A DNA stretch of 16,974 nt, taken from contig JBFMGU010000226.1 in NCBI GenBank assembly GCA_040752415.1, positions 1 to 16,974 of the forward strand, written 5' to 3'. Shown here one piece after another: positions 3,196-11,019 of the stretch (the stretch's first letter is position 1; the number at the start of each line of letters is the position of its first letter). Both the position numbers and the translations under genes were made by a program. The DNA comes from Myxococcota bacterium (GTDB lineage Bacteria; Myxococcota; JACRCW01). The notes beneath the pieces were generated by a model. The model was not told the origin of the DNA. It worked only from the letters and a program-made list of their open reading frames with translations, and did no database searches.

Positions 3196-5373
3196 TCACT
3201 GCACCGCAACGTGACACGTTCCGCACTGGTTGGTGTACCCGGTAGGCAAGTTCGTACCCGAGGTCACCGACAGGGACTCGCTGGGCATGTCGAACAGGTG
3301 CGAGCTGATGTCGTTCTCCCAGTACTGCGTGGTGTCCACCAGGATGCCCTTGCGACCGGCGCCGGTCTTGGCGGTCTTGGGCATGTGGCACTCGGTGCAC
3401 AAAGCGTTGTTCATCAGCGTGCCCATGCCGGTGCCCAGTTTGTCGTCGATGTGGGCGACCAATCCGGTGGGCGAGGTGTCCGGGGCCGTCAAGTTGGCGT
3501 GACAGGAGCCGCAGCTGCTGGCGTTGTCCAACGGGTCGCCGCGCAACTGCCGTGGGTTGGTGGTCTTGTGCGGATCATGACAGCTGGAGCAGGTCACCAG
3601 CTGGCTCGCATTCTTGTACTTCCCGCTGCGGATGAAGTCCGTGTACTGCTGGTGATGTGACTTGGAGTGCTTCGCCTCGTCGACGTAGAAGTCCGCCTCC
3701 TCACCGTCCAGCTGCGTGACCGCATGGTTCTTGAGGAAATCATTGCGTGAGGTGCCCGCCACCATCATCTTGCCCGCGGCGTTGACCGGGCTGTCCGTGG
3801 CAAAGGCCCCCTTGGGCCGGCTATGGCACTGCCCGCAGATCAGGGACTCACGCTCCGGCGTCAGCAGCGAGGGCGAGACGATGTATTTGCCCTGGCCCGC
3901 GGCATCCCAGTGCGCGGAGCCCGGACCGTGGCAGCTCTCACAGCCCAGGTTCATCTCGTCCTTGATGCCATCGCCGTTGTAGTCCCAGTCCCCCCACAGC
4001 GGGTCGCTCACCACGGACGCATTCCAGTTGGTGGCATCCGACCCGGTGACCGTGGCCCCGTTGGCGTGACAAGACAGGCAGTTCTTCTCGAATGACTTGG
4101 ACGCGGCGGGATTCTTGAAGACCTGGTTCGTCTCGTCGTACCAGTTGCCGGCGTTGTAGTCGCGCCAGACCTTGCGCGTGCGGTCGGAGTAGGTGTCGTC
4201 GCCCTCATGTTGGTACTGCACCGGAAGCATGGCGTGGAAGAAGCCATTGGGACCGGACACCCGCGTCATGTAGCGCTGCTTCAGCACACCTCCGCCGTAC
4301 ACCGCGTCCACGCGGTAGAATCGGTCCGGGTCCGCCGGATTCCTCACGTTGTGCAGTTGCATGGAATAGCTATCCGCCTGGTAGCTCAGCGTCAGGGTGA
4401 ACGAGACGTCGCCGGTGCCGGGGTCCGACTCCAGGGTCTTGTACTTGTCCATCTTGCGCGTGCCGTCATAGGCGTAGAACCAGATGGTGACGGCGCCGGT
4501 GAACTTCTGGGTTAGTGGCCCATAGACTTCATCATAACGCCCGGAGAAATCCTGCAGCATGCCATGCTCATACGGTGACCAGATGCCCAGACGATGCATG
4601 GTCCGGGAGATGGACACGTGGCCGTGACAGGTCACGCACCGGCCGCTGCCGATGTACTCCGCATCCACCGGTGTTGCCGATGACACCTGGATGTCCAGCC
4701 GCTTGCCCGTCAATGCGTCGGCGGTCTGGGCCGTGCGGCAGGAGCTTCCGCCAGGCAGGTGCTCCACGTCGGTGACGTCGGGGACAAAGGTCACGAAGTA
4801 GGAGCCGGCGGTCAGGGAGGTGAGCCGGTACACGCCCGTGTCATCCAGCACGGCCTGCTGGTAGGTGCTCCCGTTGGCCGCAATGACGTCCTCCAACGGC
4901 TCATCGTCCGGGGAGTCCACGGCCACGGTGGTCCTGGGCAGTGCGGCCACATCCGCGGCGGGAACAAAGTACACGATGCCGCCCTTGACCGTCTGACCCG
5001 CGCGATCGACCACACGCCCGACCACGCCGCCAGCCTCGGTGGCCAGGTAGCCCTCTCCGGCGGGACCCGCGGGACCAGGTTCACCAGCGGCACCGGGCTC
5101 ACCCGGAGCACCGGGCTCTCCGGGCTCTCCGGGCTCACCGGGCTCACCGGGCTCTCCAGCTTCACCCGGCTCTCCCTGCTCTCCCGGAGAACCTTGCGGG
5201 CCCACGGGGCCTACCGGGCCAGTGGGGCCCTGCGGACCCGTTGGCCCCTCGGGTCCCTGTGGGCCCTGGGGACCCGCCGGACCGGTTGCACCGTTTTCCC
5301 CGGCACACGCGGACATGCCGAGGACAGCGGGAAGAAGAACGGCGAAGGAGTGCTTACGAAGACTGCGTAACAT
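3196..5373 (-). CDS. Octaheme c-type cytochrome lipoprotein with N-terminal collagen-like repeat
   Basis: Lipobox MSAC (Cys23), 28 Gly-X-Y triplets and a carboxypeptidase-regulatory-like beta-sandwich segment. Eight CxxCH motifs: CVTCH, CLSCH, CESCH(GPGS), CGQCH, CSSCH, CGSCH, CTECH, CGTCH. Confidence 0.9.
5050..5301 (-). repeat. Collagen-like (Gly-X-Y)28 coding repeat
   Basis: Uninterrupted [12 protein letters not shown]...GEP x5...GPA GEG. The 9-bp units CCGGGCTC(A/T) are visible at about 5090-5155. Confidence 0.9.
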
Positions 5374-5728: not shown

Positions 5729-6166
5729 ATGAACCGGATCGTCGTCGCGTGTGTCTTTGGCGCGGTGCTTGGCGTGGCGTGCAACAGCGACTCCGCCGCG
5801 ACCGTCCGCCAGTACACCTACAGCAAGGACTTCCACTACTACGACGAGAAGCAGGTCAACTCGTCCATGCACCGCATCTCCAAGGCGGCACGTGAGCTCA
5901 ACGCCCTGCTCAAGCAGCAAGAGCTGACGCCGGAACAGCAGGCGGAGGTGGTGCGGTTGCTGGGGGAAATGGAGCGGGGCGCGCGGGAGCTGAAGTCGGC
6001 GGACCCGGCGTCCAACCACCCGCGCATCACCGACAACGTGGACCAGTTCATCCGGGACATCGAGACGGCGCGCGCGTCCGCGCAGAGGACGCCGCCGAAC
6101 TACTACCTGGCCGGGAGCATCACCGGGTCGTGTTTCTATTGTCATTCCCCCACGGGAATCCCGTAA
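5729..6166 (+). CDS. Cytochrome c'-like (class II, helical bundle) monoheme lipoprotein
   Basis: Signal peptide with lipobox-like GVAC, amphipathic helices, and a single CFYCH near the C-terminus, as in class II cytochromes. ATG 5729 gives 145 aa. Confidence 0.75.
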   Translation: MNRIVVACVFGAVLGVACNSDSAATVRQYTYSKDFHYYDEKQVNSSMHRISKAARELNALLKQQELTPEQQAEVVRLLGEMERGARELKSADPASNHPRITDNVDQFIRDIETARASAQRTPPNYYLAGSITGSCFYCHSPTGIP

Positions 6167-6203: not shown

Positions 6204-7346
6204 TCAGATGTCGTCGATGCCCGCGCCGCGCTGCTGAAGCGTGTTGGTCCAGGTGCTGATGATGGTGCGTGCCGCGTAACCCGCGGCCAGGGTGAACACC
6301 ACCGCGCCGACGAGAGCGATGGCCCGCTGCGCCGCGCGCTGCGCCAGGTCTTCCTGTTCCACGGCGCAGCCCCGCAGCACCTCCGGGAGACGACCACTCT
6401 GCTCTCCCACCGCCACCCGCGCCACGACGTCACCGGGAAAGACAGCCCGTATGCCCAGCACCTCCGCCAGCGTGGCGCCACGATCCAGCGTCGCGACCCA
6501 GGTGGCCTGCGCGTCGAGGAGTCGTGCGTCGTGGGTGGCGTCCGCGGCGAGCACCAGGGCTTCACGCGCGGGCAGCCCCGCGGCCAGACAGGTGGAGAGC
6601 ACGTCAGTGAAGGTGGCGTTGGATTGGTGCAGCACCACGCCACGCGCCAGGGGCAGGTACAGCGCCAGGCGACTGAGCACGGACCGCAACGTCGAGCCCG
6701 GCGGCAGCGAGGGCAGGCGCGCCACCAGGAATCCCAGCACGACCACCACCCCCACGACGGGCGCGGCCGTGCGCAGGTACGCCGCCGGACCGGACGTCAC
6801 CCAGCTTGGCAGCGGGAGCACCAGGCCCGCCACGGTGAGCAGGAGCAGGGGCTGCAGGAGTCGCGCTTGCAGGGCGCGCATGGCCTTCCGCCGTTCCCGC
6901 ATCCGCGCCACGACGTGACGGAGCGCCTCCGGCAGCCGCCCGGTCCTCTCCCCGACGACAACGAGCGCCTTCCCCGCGTGATCCAGCACGCCCAGGCGGA
7001 ACAGCGCCTCCGACGGCACCAGGTCGGTGCGTTGCAGCAACTCCCGCGCGCTCGCGGGAAGGTCACTGGCGCCCGCGCCCTGGGCGAATGCCGGCACGGT
7101 CAGTCCCGCGTCGAGCACCTGCGCGCAGTTGGACAGGAGGGTTTCCACCTGTTGCGCGTCCAGGGACACCCGCGCGGTCCCAGCGACAGGAGCGCGCACC
7201 GCCGGGACGGGGGCGGGTGACGTCGTGGCTGGTGGTCGATAGCGCGCGTAGATGACACCGCACGCGGGACACTCCATGGCGCCGGGAGGACGGGGTCGGC
7301 CGCACCGGGGACAGCCCGACGACGATGATGGCGGCGAAGTGCTCAC
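6204..7346 (-). CDS. Type II secretion F / PilC-family inner-membrane protein with N-terminal zinc ribbon
   Basis: Two T2SSF-like repeats (LDAGLTV...VVGERTGRLPEAL; LAAGLP..EAL...RGATLAEVL...VAVGEQSGRLPEVL) followed by hydrophobic segments. N-terminal CPRC-x10-CPAC. Confidence 0.8.
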   Translation of the reverse strand: MSTSPPSSSSGCPRCGRPRPPGAMECPACGVIYARYRPPATTSPAPVPAVRAPVAGTARVSLDAQQVETLLSNCAQVLDAGLTVPAFAQGAGASDLPASARELLQRTDLVPSEALFRLGVLDHAGKALVVVGERTGRLPEALRHVVARMRERRKAMRALQARLLQPLLLLTVAGLVLPLPSWVTSGPAAYLRTAAPVVGVVVVLGFLVARLPSLPPGSTLRSVLSRLALYLPLARGVVLHQSNATFTDVLSTCLAAGLPAREALVLAADATHDARLLDAQATWVATLDRGATLAEVLGIRAVFPGDVVARVAVGEQSGRLPEVLRGCAVEQEDLAQRAAQRAIALVGAVVFTLAAGYAARTIISTWTNTLQQRGAGIDDI

Positions 7347-7387: not shown

Positions 7388-10300
7388 TCACTGGAAATTG
7401 CAGCCTTCCGCCACCCACCGATAGATGAGCTGGTAACGCGGGTCGGTGGTGTCGGCGAAGAATTTCACCGGGTGCACGGCGCCACTGCCCTGCAGCGGTT
7501 CCACCAGCACCAGGCTGCGCTCCGGGTAGCCATTCTTGTTCACCAGGAACGCCTCACCCAGGTTGTCGGGGTCGGTGGCGGCCTGGTTCACCATCTCGTC
7601 GTAGAGCTCGGTGGGGTTGTTGCCCAGGAAGAACCCGCCGGGCGCGTTGGTGGCGTTGCGTCCCTCGAAGTGGCACGAGCGACACCCCGTCCCGCCCTGC
7701 TGCGGCGTGTTGGCGATGAGCGGATAGATGTCGTTGGTGAAATGCACCGGTTGCACATTCACCTGCCGCTGCGCGCCCTCCGCAATCCATGCACGAATGG
7801 CCTGGTAGGCCGGGTCCTGCGTGCTGGCGAAAGCAAAGATGGGGTGATCCTGGATTCCCGACGCCTCATAGAGAGGTCGCACCAGCAGCGTGCTCTGGTC
7901 GGGATTCTGCACGTTGACGCGCGAGGGGTATTGCGCGGGGTTGAGCTGGGCGTACGCCGACGCCGCTCCACCGGACAGGTTCAATCCGCCTGCCGGTGTG
8001 TTGCCGGAGTGACAGCCCTGGCAGCCGAATCCGCCCTGACTGACGGGCAGGAACAGCGGATACACCTGGGAATCAAAGTCCACGTTTCCGGATGGCACCG
8101 GCGCCACGCCCGTTTCCGGGAGCACCATCCAGGTCACGCCATTGGGGCGGAAGGCCTTGGCACCCACCGGGCCAAAGTAGCGCGTGGTGCCGCGCGTGGC
8201 GTCGTCGTAGGCAATGGAGAGCTGGAAATCCAACGACGCGCTCCCCGCCGTCTGCGGAATCTCCACGAACGCTACGAAATACCCACCGTGGATTTCATGG
8301 TTCTGCGAGACGGTGAAGTTGCCCGGGGTTCCGTTGTTGTCGAGGAAATACGGGCCGCGCGTGAACCATGAGGCACCGTTGGGACCGCGGATGGTGAAAT
8401 CACCCGCCGCCACGCCGCCCACCGGGTAGGGCACGCCCTGGCCCACGGTCCCGTCGTCAAGGATGCGGCCCACGATCATGGCGTAGATGCACTGGTCCAG
8501 CGGATTGAGCCCCGGCGCATGACACGCAAAGGGAGCATCCAGGTTGACGGAGTGTTGCGTGGCCACGGCGGAAACCCAGCTGTTCTCCGCGAGATAGATG
8601 TTGGTTCCCAGCAGGTTCTGTCCCTGCGCGGTGACTTCCATGTAGCTGGGGTAGTAGCCCGCCTTGTTGGCGAACAGCACCACCTTCCCGTCGGCGGGAA
8701 TCTGCATGTTGTATTCGCCCAGCGTGGTGGCGTCGGAGCTGGAGACGGCGGTGCGCACCGGGTTGGTGCCGTAGGTCATGATGGTGGCGCCTGCCACGGG
8801 GGTGTCCGTGGAAGCCAGCCAGGCTCCCAACGCCGCGGCCTTGCCTTCCAGCACCACGGTTTGCGGCGGCGGAGGCTCAAAGGCGTGCACGTGGGCTTCC
8901 GTGGTGCAGCGCACGTTGGGATCCAGCTCGGTATGGTCGTTGTTGTGCAGCGTGATGATGATCGGGTGCTCGCCCTCGGTGGCGTCGGCGGGGACCTGGA
9001 AGCGCATCTGCGGCTCGGTCCCGGCGCCCAGCAGGTATTCCGGTCCCACGGCGTGGAAATACACATGGAAATGCCCGTGCCGGTCCACGTTGGCGCCGCC
9101 CATGCCCACGGCGTCGAGCACGAAGTAACGGACGGCCACGTTGATGTCGAGATTGCCTCCCGCCTCCAGGTGCTCATTGGCGAGCGTGACGCTCACGGTG
9201 GGCGGAGGCGGCGCGGTCACGTTGATGGTCACCGCGGCCTCGGTGGAAGGCTCACACGGGGAGTGATCATTGTTCATCAGTTTCACGACGAGCTGATGGC
9301 TCCCCACGGTGGTGTTCAGCGGCAAGGCCAGCGTGAGGCTGGGTTGCGCGCCCGCGCCCAGCAGGTTCCCGTCGGCCACCGAGTCCAGGTACACGTGGTA
9401 GTGCCCGTGTCCCGCCTGGTGCGCTCCCCCAACGTGAGACGCGTCCAGCTCGAAGTTCTGCACCGCCACGTTCAGCGTGAAATCGGTTCCCGCGGGGATG
9501 TCCGAGGTTCCCACCGAGGGGGTCACCGCGGGAACGCCGGCGGACCCGGTGACCTCGACGTTGACCGAGCAGGAGACGTTCAGCGCCGTGTGATCATTGC
9601 TGTGCAACGTCACGATGATGGGATGCGGCCCCGCCGTGGCGGTGGGCGGGATGGTGACGGCGACGCTGGATTCCGCTCCGGCAACCAGCAGGTTCTCCGC
9701 GCTCACGTCGTGGAAATACACATGGTAATGCCCATGTCCCTCCACGTTGGCTCCGCCCATGCCCGCGGAATCCAGCGTGAAGTTCACGGTCTGGATGTTG
9801 ACCTGCACCTGGCCGCCCGGGGTGGTGGTTCCCGGACTGAGCGTGGCGGAGACAGCGGGTCCCGTGGGCGCCGTGACGTCGACGTTGACGGTGTAGGAGA
9901 CAGGTGGGCTCAAGGCCGTGTGGTCATTGTTCTGCAACGTCACGATGATGGGATGCGAACCGGTGCTGGCGGTCAGCGGGATGGTGACAGCCACGGTGGA
10001 ATCCGCGCCGGCGGCCAGCAGGTTCTCCGTGCTCGTGTCGTGGAAATACACATGGTAATGCCCGTGCCCTTCCACGTTGGCGCTTCCCACGGCCGCACCA
10101 TCCAGCGTGAAGTTCACGGTCTGGATGTTGAGCGTCACCTGGGCGCCCGCGGTGACTGCAGCGGGAATGACCGTGGCGGTGACCACCGGCCCGGTGGGCG
10201 CGGTGACCTCCACCTCGACGGTGCTGCTGGCATCCGGCTCCACCGGGGTGTGGTCATTGTTGTGCAGGGTCACAATGAGGGGATGGCGCCCCGGCGCGGC

Positions 10301-10606
10301 ATTGGCGGGGATGGCGGCGGTGAAGGTCTCCTCGGCCCCCGCGCCCAGCAGGTTGGTCTTGTCATGGAAATACACATGGTAATGGCCGTGGCCCTTCTTC
10401 TTGGCGCCACCCATGCGTTCCTTGTCCAGGGTGAAGTTCTGCACGCTGATGGAAAGCGTCACCTGGCTGCCCGCCGCCACGGGCCCGGGTGTGACCGTGG
10501 CGCTGACCGAGGGGTTCTGCTCTTCTTCCCCGTCCCCTTCCGGTTCCTGGCAGGCGGTGAGGGTCAGCACAACGGACCCGATCAACAGTGAATGGCTGAG
10601 ACGCAC
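7388..10606 (-). CDS. Large lipoprotein: five His-rich Ig-like repeats, beta-sandwich region and two C-terminal monoheme cytochrome c domains
   Basis: GTG start with GGAGGAG RBS and lipobox LTAC. Five ~109-aa repeats each carry HGH(Y/F)HVY and L-x-(N/S)-NDH. CQGCH (8009-8023) and CRSCH (7670-7684) lie in duplicated domains. Confidence 0.88.
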   Translation of the reverse strand: MRLSHSLLIGSVVLTLTACQEPEGDGEEEQNPSVSATVTPGPVAAGSQVTLSISVQNFTLDKERMGGAKKKGHGHYHVYFHDKTNLLGAGAEETFTAAIPANAAPGRHPLIVTLHNNDHTPVEPDASSTVEVEVTAPTGPVVTATVIPAAVTAGAQVTLNIQTVNFTLDGAAVGSANVEGHGHYHVYFHDTSTENLLAAGADSTVAVTIPLTASTGSHPIIVTLQNNDHTALSPPVSYTVNVDVTAPTGPAVSATLSPGTTTPGGQVQVNIQTVNFTLDSAGMGGANVEGHGHYHVYFHDVSAENLLVAGAESSVAVTIPPTATAGPHPIIVTLHSNDHTALNVSCSVNVEVTGSAGVPAVTPSVGTSDIPAGTDFTLNVAVQNFELDASHVGGAHQAGHGHYHVYLDSVADGNLLGAGAQPSLTLALPLNTTVGSHQLVVKLMNNDHSPCEPSTEAAVTINVTAPPPPTVSVTLANEHLEAGGNLDINVAVRYFVLDAVGMGGANVDRHGHFHVYFHAVGPEYLLGAGTEPQMRFQVPADATEGEHPIIITLHNNDHTELDPNVRCTTEAHVHAFEPPPPQTVVLEGKAAALGAWLASTDTPVAGATIMTYGTNPVRTAVSSSDATTLGEYNMQIPADGKVVLFANKAGYYPSYMEVTAQGQNLLGTNIYLAENSWVSAVATQHSVNLDAPFACHAPGLNPLDQCIYAMIVGRILDDGTVGQGVPYPVGGVAAGDFTIRGPNGASWFTRGPYFLDNNGTPGNFTVSQNHEIHGGYFVAFVEIPQTAGSASLDFQLSIAYDDATRGTTRYFGPVGAKAFRPNGVTWMVLPETGVAPVPSGNVDFDSQVYPLFLPVSQGGFGCQGCHSGNTPAGGLNLSGGAASAYAQLNPAQYPSRVNVQNPDQSTLLVRPLYEASGIQDHPIFAFASTQDPAYQAIRAWIAEGAQRQVNVQPVHFTNDIYPLIANTPQQGGTGCRSCHFEGRNATNAPGGFFLGNNPTELYDEMVNQAATDPDNLGEAFLVNKNGYPERSLVLVEPLQGSGAVHPVKFFADTTDPRYQLIYRWVAEGCNFQ
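8880..10510 (-). repeat. Five tandem ~324-330-bp intragenic repeats
   Basis: The His-motif-encoding block TGGAAATACACATGG recurs at 10365, 10041, 9711 and 9054, with a divergent copy at about 9384. Boundaries are approximate. Confidence 0.85.
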
Positions 10607-10850
10607 GGTTCTCTCCTCCGGCCATGCTCATGACCGCAATGTGTTCCGGGTCCACCGACCCATGCTGCCGATGCCCGCGGGCACCGCTTCTTGACCGTCC
10701 CCCGTTCACTCCCGGCACGTGGCGTGCAGCCAGGCCGGGAGGAACAGCGCTCAGCGCACAAAAACGCGCAACCTCGTCGTCATGCGCTGACACCCCGGAG
10801 CGTCAGGCTCCGAAATCGCGAAACCATGCAAGTCCGGTGCAAACGCGGAT

Positions 10851-11019
10851 TGCGCCAGTTTGTGCGCCGGAATCGCGCAGAACGATCACGACATCCGGGA
10901 TTCCACGCGAAGCCGCTGCAATGCGTTCGCGATCCAGGAAACCATATGCCAATGAATCGCTGGTTTCCGGCCAGACGCAGGGGATGCGTTGCGCGGAGGT
11001 TCTGCGCGATCGTCGCGCA
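10851..11019. promoter_or_regulatory. Two TGCGC-N7-GCGCA palindromes, candidate enhancer-binding-protein sites
   Basis: TGCGCCGGAATCGCGCA (10863-10879) and TGCGCGATCGTCGCGCA (11003-11019), each preceded by an extra TTGCGC half-site, in the 445-bp region upstream of the His-repeat gene. Confidence 0.35.

Follow-up and report, generated by a model that had tools for sequence, protein, structure and literature searches.

What does a lipoprotein that joins five histidine-rich repeats to two haems c do in the cell envelope? The question is raised by the gene at positions 7388..10606 on the reverse strand of a 16,974-nucleotide stretch of DNA from a Myxococcota bacterium (contig JBFMGU010000226.1; this whole stretch is hereafter called the window). 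The gene translates to 1072 amino acids (aa) with zero internal stops, and its product is a lipoprotein composed of five DUF4399-type repeats and a 492-aa cytochrome module. The answer that we favor, with rather less than even confidence, is that this protein is an envelope copper-capture array wired to haems and likely a cupric reductase. A first reading of the locus from the letters alone (the sequence-only reading) had suggested metal capture combined with a reductase, and the same function is what we tentatively predict here from sequence and genomic context.

The GC content at third codon positions of the gene (0.85) is normal for coding DNA here. The start codon is a GTG at 10606, with a Shine-Dalgarno-like GGAGGAG (10613..10619, on the reverse strand, as are all parts of this gene given below) 6 nt ahead of it. 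The segment 10550..10606 was read as a signal peptide with the lipobox LTLTA-C19. Bacterial lipoboxes follow the pattern [LVI][ASTVI][GAS]C; the protein has L-T-A-C19 at this point, and the lipobox Cys lies at the same place in the homologues.

The five tandem repeats are 108-110 aa long each and share 36-70% pairwise identity. They are R1 (aa 34-141, 10184..10507, profile E 4e-52), R2 (aa 142-251, 9854..10183, recognized by profile and the copy that was modeled), R3 (aa 252-360, 9527..9853), R4 (aa 361-470, 9197..9526), and R5 (aa 471-580, 8867..9196), the last of which adjoins the module. In a genome-wide search, a profile made from these repeats matched every copy with E values of 1e-49 to 1e-53 and gave no further match elsewhere in the 11.0-Mb, 520-contig assembly. 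The motifs HGH[YF]HVY, GxH, and L-x-[NS]-NDH, which the sequence-only reading had picked out in repeats of about 109 aa, are all found in 5/5 repeats. The Met or His that it had described as usual in the loop ahead of the first motif is present in four of the five (ERMGG, AGMGG, SHVGG, and VGMGG); R2 is the exception, as its loop reads AAVGS. When the repeats of the window protein were aligned with those of single-domain relatives (15-17 sequences), G41, H42, H44, Y46, G75, H77, L83, and H88 (R2 numbering) were invariant or nearly so, and the four conserved His residues are shared by bacterial and archaeal relatives.

These repeats appear to be a divergent branch of DUF4399. Indeed, the whole protein matches this family (PF14347) above its gathering cut-off (32.5 bits versus 28, E 1.1e-7) in three stretches, which bears out the resemblance noted in the sequence-only reading. 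A genome search with PF14347 detected no single repeat segment at E <= 1e-3 in the window genome; the same search found canonical members in 3 other genomes, with 95-105 bits. Compared by eye, canonical DUF4399 proteins (L046-L048) have GHxHxxxD, GxH, and DxH in common with the repeats, and the set of conserved His emphasized by the sequence-only reading (HxH, GxH, and D-H) is a hallmark that recurs in canonical DUF4399 and in every relative. The canonical proteins have one domain, with an additional HIH insertion, whereas the window protein has five repeats. The ESM Atlas neighbors of the repeat are DUF4399 and DUF6130 clusters. No match for the window protein was found in NCBIfam, and a phmmer search of the PDB returned none for this protein (P0001) or for the related P0031.

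An AlphaFold2 (AF2) model of R2, made from a 17-row alignment, is an eight-strand sandwich with a pLDDT of 95.3. Searches with this model returned generic immunoglobulin (Ig), PKD, and FN3 rows, with a best Foldseek template modeling (TM) score of 0.53 and VIA Z scores of 9.1 at most, rows under Z 8 falling in the range termed common for VIA-align; a CopC row reached a TM of 0.41 in Foldseek and did not stand out from the others. The repeats are accordingly taken to fold as generic Ig-like sandwiches. If the ordinary Ig topology applies, as we assume, strand C would open with H42 and H44 and the F-G loop would carry H88, which would place all three at one end of the domain.

A word-indexed search identified 23 proteins at E <= 1e-3, the window protein among them. 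Nine cluster representatives from four sources carry 2-3 repeats and the same module at 43-52% identity, so the architecture is not an assembly artefact. In the 3-repeat homologues, the repeats align with R3-R5, R3 being matched by the first of the three, so that R1 and R2 are read as additional duplications. In the two repeats nearest the module, which correspond to R4 and R5, the His motifs are invariant (9/9 homologues); degenerate motifs are confined to the first repeat of P0010 and P0011. The same search gave a dozen further arrays with 3-10 repeats. The arrays of P0016 and P0024 come from a source named Thermoplasmatota archaeon, those of P0012 and P0021 have a hydrophobic anchor at the C-terminus, and P0008 combines nine DUF4399 repeats with a C-terminal plastocyanin-like tail (PF00127, 20.2 bits, slightly below the cut-off of 21.2). 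With a single repeat as query, the word-indexed search gave 0 matches near its own length and 4 at longer lengths, with no new fusion partners, and a metagenome scan by full-length alignment returned 6 contigs of 1.3-3.3 kb each.

The metal was predicted mainly from the relatives of the repeat. Among 401 sampled genomes of the phylum, 12 carry the repeat, and outside the window genome it occurs in single-domain lipoproteins of about 145-215 aa, plus one 540-aa protein. Many of the single-domain relatives possess a His/Asp/Glu-rich insertion directly ahead of GH[YF]HVY. We fetched 9-12 kb around 11 of them and scanned 46/79 of the called open reading frames (ORFs) at nine loci and 15/16 at two low-GC loci. 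Copper markers were present within 6 kb at 8/11 loci: YtkA/CtaK-like genes at L030, L032, L035, L036, and L037, a DUF1775/YcnI-like gene at L030, MbnP at L033 (along with a MauG-like dihaem peroxidase) and L034, a MopE copper motif also at L034, and a CusB/CusA-like RND pump at L038. In addition, pentahaem c554/MtrC-like cytochromes were found at L031, L032, L035, L036, and L037. The scanned ORFs of L029 and L039 contained neither a copper marker nor a pentahaem cytochrome. As to what these markers do, the YtkA domain/CtaK acts in CuA assembly (PMC13344008), YcnI is reported to bind Cu(II) (PMC8424229), and MbnH makes MbnP, a copper protein containing kynurenine (PMC11951088). We read the repeat metal as copper because of the His conservation, the His/Asp/Glu-rich insertions, and these neighborhoods. 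The metal site proposed by the sequence-only reading is thus retained as a prediction, now for copper specifically, and is backed by the neighborhoods of the single-domain forms and by a fusion of the module to a Cu,Zn superoxide dismutase (SOD) described below.

Several gene arrangements at these loci deserve mention. A set composed of a YtkA/CtaK-like lipoprotein (with the conserved motif WMPDHGHG), a pentahaem cytochrome, and a single-domain DUF4399-like protein recurs in Myxococcota at L032, L035, L036, and L037, and also at L031; at L036, the operon contains a YtkA-like gene, a PSCyt1 monohaem cytochrome gene, a pentahaem cytochrome gene, and a DUF4399-like gene. At L030 (4549-5382, forward strand), a YtkA-like protein was seen by eye to end in a PSCyt1-type CxxCH...TMPP tail, and the MbnP of L034 (7480-9120, forward strand) is fused to a cytochrome c domain, identified by Pfam as Cytochrome_CBB3.

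The second half of the protein, residues 581-1072, is composed of a transthyretin-like (TTR-like) domain, a beta-sandwich, and two PSCyt1-like haem domains, and the AF2 model of this 492-aa module (35 rows) has a pLDDT of 91.7, with both haem domains helical. The TTR-like (CarboxypepD_reg-like) domain (aa 581-679, 8570..8866) was recognized from a weak Pfam CarbopepD_reg_2 match and from VIA, where 81 aa aligned with 5aq0_B (Z 10.4, root-mean-square deviation (rmsd) 1.8). The middle beta-sandwich (aa 680-835, 8102..8569) is defined by the model and by its invariant columns, including C695/C706 and many further residues, and no specific row was returned for it by Foldseek or VIA. Haem c domain 1 (aa 836-947, 7766..8101) has its CxxCH at 862-866 and a conserved H921-P922; haem c domain 2 (aa 950-1072, 7391..7759) has its CxxCH at 975-979 and a conserved H1045-P1046 and is the FoxE-like part. 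The two CxxCH domains and the beta-rich region between them and the repeats, both reported by the sequence-only reading, are therefore present.

A profile of the module family matched a single solved protein in the PDB, FoxE (5mab_A, E 4.4e-6), in the second haem domain. FoxE is also the sole haem-domain row in the top 50 of VIA (Z 7.6, a value in the range termed common, rmsd 2.8, 99 aa); Foldseek with the whole module gave no haem-domain row, and its results were dominated by beta-sandwich rows. By the profile match, the haem part is remotely homologous to FoxE, and kinship with this metal-ion oxidoreductase speaks for a redox role of the module with metal ions. Pfam PSCyt1 (PF07635) has no match at E <= 1 on the window protein; among 30 distant haem-domain relatives that were scanned, six match it (P0050, P0052, P0053, P0056, P0060, and P0087).

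The haem ligands were examined in domain instances drawn from 150 proteins. The haem-attachment columns hold C, C, and H in 198, 211, and 211 of 229 instances for the domain 1 model and in 203, 208, and 208 of 223 instances for the domain 2 model. In the distal-ligand column, His is found in 196/229 and 210/223 instances, and Met is not among the commonest residues. At the His-Pro position, FoxE has RMPPG and the PSCyt1 protein of L036 has AMPPG. As the conserved His-Pro replaces the Met-Pro of FoxE and PSCyt1, both haems are likely bis-His, and haems ligated in this way would have lower potentials. A complex prediction of R5 with the module and two haems scored 0.00, compared with a mark of 0.32, and counts neither way.

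The module is a rare Myxococcota family of its own, mostly without repeats. A full HMMER scan of 1.84 billion representatives gave 258 matches at E <= 1e-3 and 29 at E <= 1e-30, and the related module loci belong to metagenome-assembled genomes of Myxococcota and 'Deltaproteobacteria'. In the 401 genomes of the phylum, 17 match the module at E <= 1e-10, of which 13 have a complete module; the window genome has this one copy. In six sampled genomes, the module and a DUF4399-like gene exist as separate genes, which is why we take the window protein to be a fusion of separate partners. Another fusion is P0034, in which a complete canonical Cu,Zn-SOD domain (PF00080, E 1.3e-34) lies ahead of the module. 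In P0028, P0031, and P0047, the module is followed by 3-4 detected C-terminal repeats each (11 in total) of about 120-130 aa, with the pattern HVH..C..GGHY..NEIW..VIHD..C-DL, which recalls motifs of (Cu-only) SOD. No Pfam or PDB match was found for these C-terminal repeats. Electron-transfer domains thus recur beside copper domains, in P0034, P0008, L030, and L034, an observation in favor of pairing redox activity with copper.

Standalone modules show arrangements of their own. They are usually encoded by a pair of neighboring paralogues with 43-53% identity to the query, as seen at L001, L003, L005, L006, and L007 and in genomes G039, G062, G072, G082, G087, G107, and G115; 7 of the 13 genomes with a complete module have such tandem pairs, which suggests a heteromeric pair. 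The module neighborhoods L001-L009 (49/79 ORFs scanned) showed no conserved partner besides these paralogues; Ser/Thr kinases were also frequent there, as they are in these genomes generally. P0032 and P0175 carry Cys-rich repeats of an unknown family on both sides of the module, with the pattern C..YC..C...C..C...CR..H...HC.HA..GGG.C; P0175 corresponds to L004:8927-11890, and it lies between genes for an MtrC-like cytochrome with nine CxxCH, a 995-aa cytochrome, and an ApbE-redoxin fusion. No YtkA-like domain was detected within the module by hhalign.

The mechanism that we propose would run as follows. The lipoprotein would sit in the cell envelope and capture copper on the conserved histidines of its repeats, each repeat binding one metal ion through H42, H44, and H88; D87, H40, and the Met or His of the loop may add to the site, and the conserved H77 is perhaps structural. 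Electrons would come from the neighboring cytochromes, namely an octahaem lipoprotein (3196..5373) and a small CxxCH lipoprotein (5729..6166), and would pass through the two haems to the nearest repeat or repeats. The most probable reaction would be the reduction of Cu(II) to Cu(I) for envelope copper handling, and chaperones or transporters would then receive the Cu(I). We propose this direction of electron flow because of just two points, the putative bis-His ligation and the YtkA/CtaK context. A wider proposal, which we regard as possible and on the doubtful side, is that DUF4399 domains are copper sites and that the window protein is the fused form of an unrecognized myxobacterial pathway of haem-dependent extracytoplasmic cupric reduction that delivers Cu(I) to chaperones; as part of the same proposal, PSCyt1/FoxE-type haems c would be wired to periplasmic DUF4399, YtkA/CtaK, MbnP, and SodC proteins.

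A number of observations weigh against copper reduction. The kinship with FoxE points to iron more than to copper, the SodC fusion of P0034 fits a reactive-oxygen role equally well, and both the bis-His ligation and the electron direction are features that we infer. Pfam scans of the window ORFs revealed no recognizable copper-homeostasis gene, and none was found in the module neighborhoods L001-L009 (49/79 ORFs scanned). Most members of the module family are lipoproteins of 540-645 aa with a Pro/Asp-rich linker and no metal-binding domain. Foldseek and VIA searches with the repeat model gave no match specific to copper proteins. Under the ordinary Ig topology that we assume, H77 and the trio H42, H44, and H88 would be found at opposite ends of the domain. 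It should also be noted that the 11 single-domain loci are not independent, as three are from G115 and two from G087, and G111 and G087 belong to one genus; despite this shared ancestry, the four different types of context all point to copper.

The alternative that survives best, which we nevertheless consider unlikely, is an iron redox protein, whose module would work like FoxE, oxidizing Fe(II) or reducing Fe(III) in the periplasm, and whose repeats would bind iron or extend the protein. This would agree with FoxE being the sole solved relative of the haem part, with the multihaem MtrC-like cytochromes that lie close by in both the window and L004, and with the lack of any copper domain in most module members. 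However, no PQQ-propeller or DMT-transporter (foxY/foxZ-like) gene was found among the 18 window ORFs scanned, His takes the place of FoxE's axial Met, the relatives of the repeat are in copper contexts and not in iron ones, and the partners found in fusions are copper proteins (SodC and the plastocyanin-like tail).

We rank next, and hold to be improbable as well, the idea that the repeats are structural spacers, that is, Ig-like stalk or adhesion repeats whose His bind a structural ion or none, with a module of unrelated function. The generic Ig-like sandwich, the arrays of 6-10 copies in surface-anchored proteins (including P0016, P0024, P0012, and P0021), and a repeat number that varies (2, 3, or 5) are all stalk-like features. 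The conservation of four His from archaea to bacteria would be unusual for a spacer, however, and the His-rich acidic insertions and copper neighborhoods of the single-domain forms also argue against it, as does the loss of His in P0010 and P0011 solely in the repeat farthest from the module.

Less probable again is a reactive-oxygen enzyme, such as an envelope superoxide oxidase or reductase, in which repeat copper would react with superoxide and the haems would serve as electron sink or source. The complete Cu,Zn-SOD of P0034 and the SOD-reminiscent C-terminal repeats of P0028, P0031, and P0047 fit this scheme, and the strand HxH with a distal His resembles the SOD copper site. Against it, hhalign gave the DUF4399 repeats a probability of only 3-7% versus SOD, which indicates no relation; the C-terminal repeats match SodC weakly (9 bits in hmmsearch with a one-sequence database, hhalign probability 5%), so that theirs is a motif resemblance; and the neighbors of the single-domain relatives are involved in copper trafficking and not in oxidative stress. 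A direct relation between DUF4399 and SOD was considered and rejected, as the hhalign probability versus the SOD domain of P0034 was 2.7% and the window protein has no PF00080 match. A haem-fed copper monooxygenase, in the style of a lytic polysaccharide monooxygenase (LPMO) plus cytochrome as drawn in the sequence-only reading, is very hard to credit, since the LPMO rows of Foldseek (6ndq, 7p3u, and 4oy6; TM 0.37-0.52, E about 1e-2) are weak, generic, and no better than the PKD/FN3 rows, the window contains no carbohydrate-active genes, and an N-terminal histidine brace is impossible, given that the mature protein begins with the lipidated Cys19 and that the repeats lie within the chain.

The remainder of the window provides the setting of the gene. 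On the same strand and 41 bp downstream lies a gene (6204..7346) for a T2SSF (GspF)-like membrane protein (Pfam T2SSF, E 5.7e-23) with an N-terminal zinc ribbon, CPRC...CPAC. No terminator-like site was found between the two genes, and their co-transcription is possible; the window has no other type II secretion or pilus genes. The small lipoprotein mentioned above (5729..6166, forward strand) has 145 aa, the lipobox LGVA-C, no Pfam match, and a single CxxCH six residues from its C-terminus, a position that we take to recall class II cytochromes c. The octahaem c lipoprotein (3196..5373, reverse strand) has 725 aa, with a collagen-like G-X-Y stretch (Collagen, PF01391, E 3e-14, aa 49-107) followed by eight CxxCH; Pfam also matches Cytochrome_C7 (E 3e-10), an MtrC/MtrF domain (E 3e-5), and paired-CXXCH motifs. 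It is unusual for a multihaem cytochrome to carry a collagen-like stalk. The similarity of this protein to the pentahaem cytochromes that neighbor the single-domain relatives is weak (BLASTP, E 9e-4), and it is not their orthologue.

The cytochrome cluster, from 3 to 11 kb, has a GC content of 0.635-0.68, compared with 0.70-0.73 in the flanks, and neither the repeat nor the module is present in the one other genome sampled from the same family; together, these may indicate that this DNA was acquired by transfer. No signal above chance came out of promoter and terminator scans, and no sigma-70-like site was found upstream of the gene. By eye, a sigma-54 -24/-12-like sequence, TGGCAT-N5-TTCC, with a mismatch at the -12 GC, was seen upstream at about 10937..10951 (reverse strand).

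Taken singly, the parts of this protein are familiar: a His-rich Ig-like domain and a cytochrome c of class-I type. What appears new, within the literature searched, is their combination, the module family, and the putative His-for-Met haem ligation. The term DUF4399 was in no title or abstract among the papers listed, the family having no known function, and no title on the function of PSCyt1 was found. The statement of the sequence-only reading that it did not recognize the architecture as described agrees with our search: none was found in the literature searched, including that on FoxE, the search covering publications other than their supplements and the InterPro architecture tables.

The bacterial copper chaperones that build CuA/CuB centers handle Cu(I), and environmental copper is Cu(II); if the copper-reductase function is true, it would answer the question of which protein reduces Cu(II) outside the cytoplasm of bacteria, and DUF4399, which occurs across bacteria and archaea, would gain its first function. 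The protein is, moreover, a test object for a rare cytochrome module that has FoxE as a solved distant relative and a different haem ligation, and it tests whether the Myxococcota pairings of PSCyt1 haems with YtkA, MbnP, SodC, and DUF4399 are signs of one shared, redox-coupled copper pathway. Should the repeats be inert spacers, the finding would shrink to a new domain architecture of an uncharacterized cytochrome.

Among known systems, FoxE of Rhodobacter ferrooxidans SW2 (5MAB) is the closest to the haem part, as both proteins have two tandem PSCyt1-like haem c domains. FoxE serves phototrophic iron oxidation as a dihaem Fe(II) oxidoreductase, with Met ligands swapped between its domains (PMC10654088). 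The distal ligand follows the CxxCH at +55 and +66 in the window protein, similar to the +53 and +57 that a FoxE homologue is reported to have (PMC10654088). FoxE has 291 aa and no beta domains or repeats, whereas the window protein has both; it has His/Met ligation where the window protein is predicted to use His-Pro for Met-Pro; and it comes from an alphaproteobacterial, phototrophic host with a foxEYZ context, unlike the window gene, which is without foxEYZ neighbors.

The repeats can also be compared with small periplasmic beta-sandwich domains of lipoproteins that have His/Met ligands, such as YtkA/CtaK, YcnI/DUF1775, CopC, and PCuAC. The ligand motif of the YtkA-like neighbors, WMPDHGHG, differs from those of the repeats, and there is no sequence match or specific fold match between them. 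SodC likewise has a strand HxH and a distal His in an Ig-like sandwich, but the repeats are without its Zn loop, disulfide, and catalytic Arg pattern. As for the proposed activity, CcoG is a cupric reductase with two 4Fe-4S clusters and a membrane protein, and Fre, Steap, and Dcytb are eukaryotic b-haem membrane cupric/ferric reductases; none is homologous to the window protein, and the likeness would lie solely in converting Cu(II) into Cu(I) before copper is trafficked. According to a 2020 review, eukaryotic surface cupric/ferric reductases use haem, CcoG, an Fe-S protein, was then the sole specific bacterial cupric reductase known, and the haem-based surface enzymes known were eukaryotic (PMC7558416). 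By that account, a bacterial cupric reductase built on haem c, as the window protein may be, would be new.

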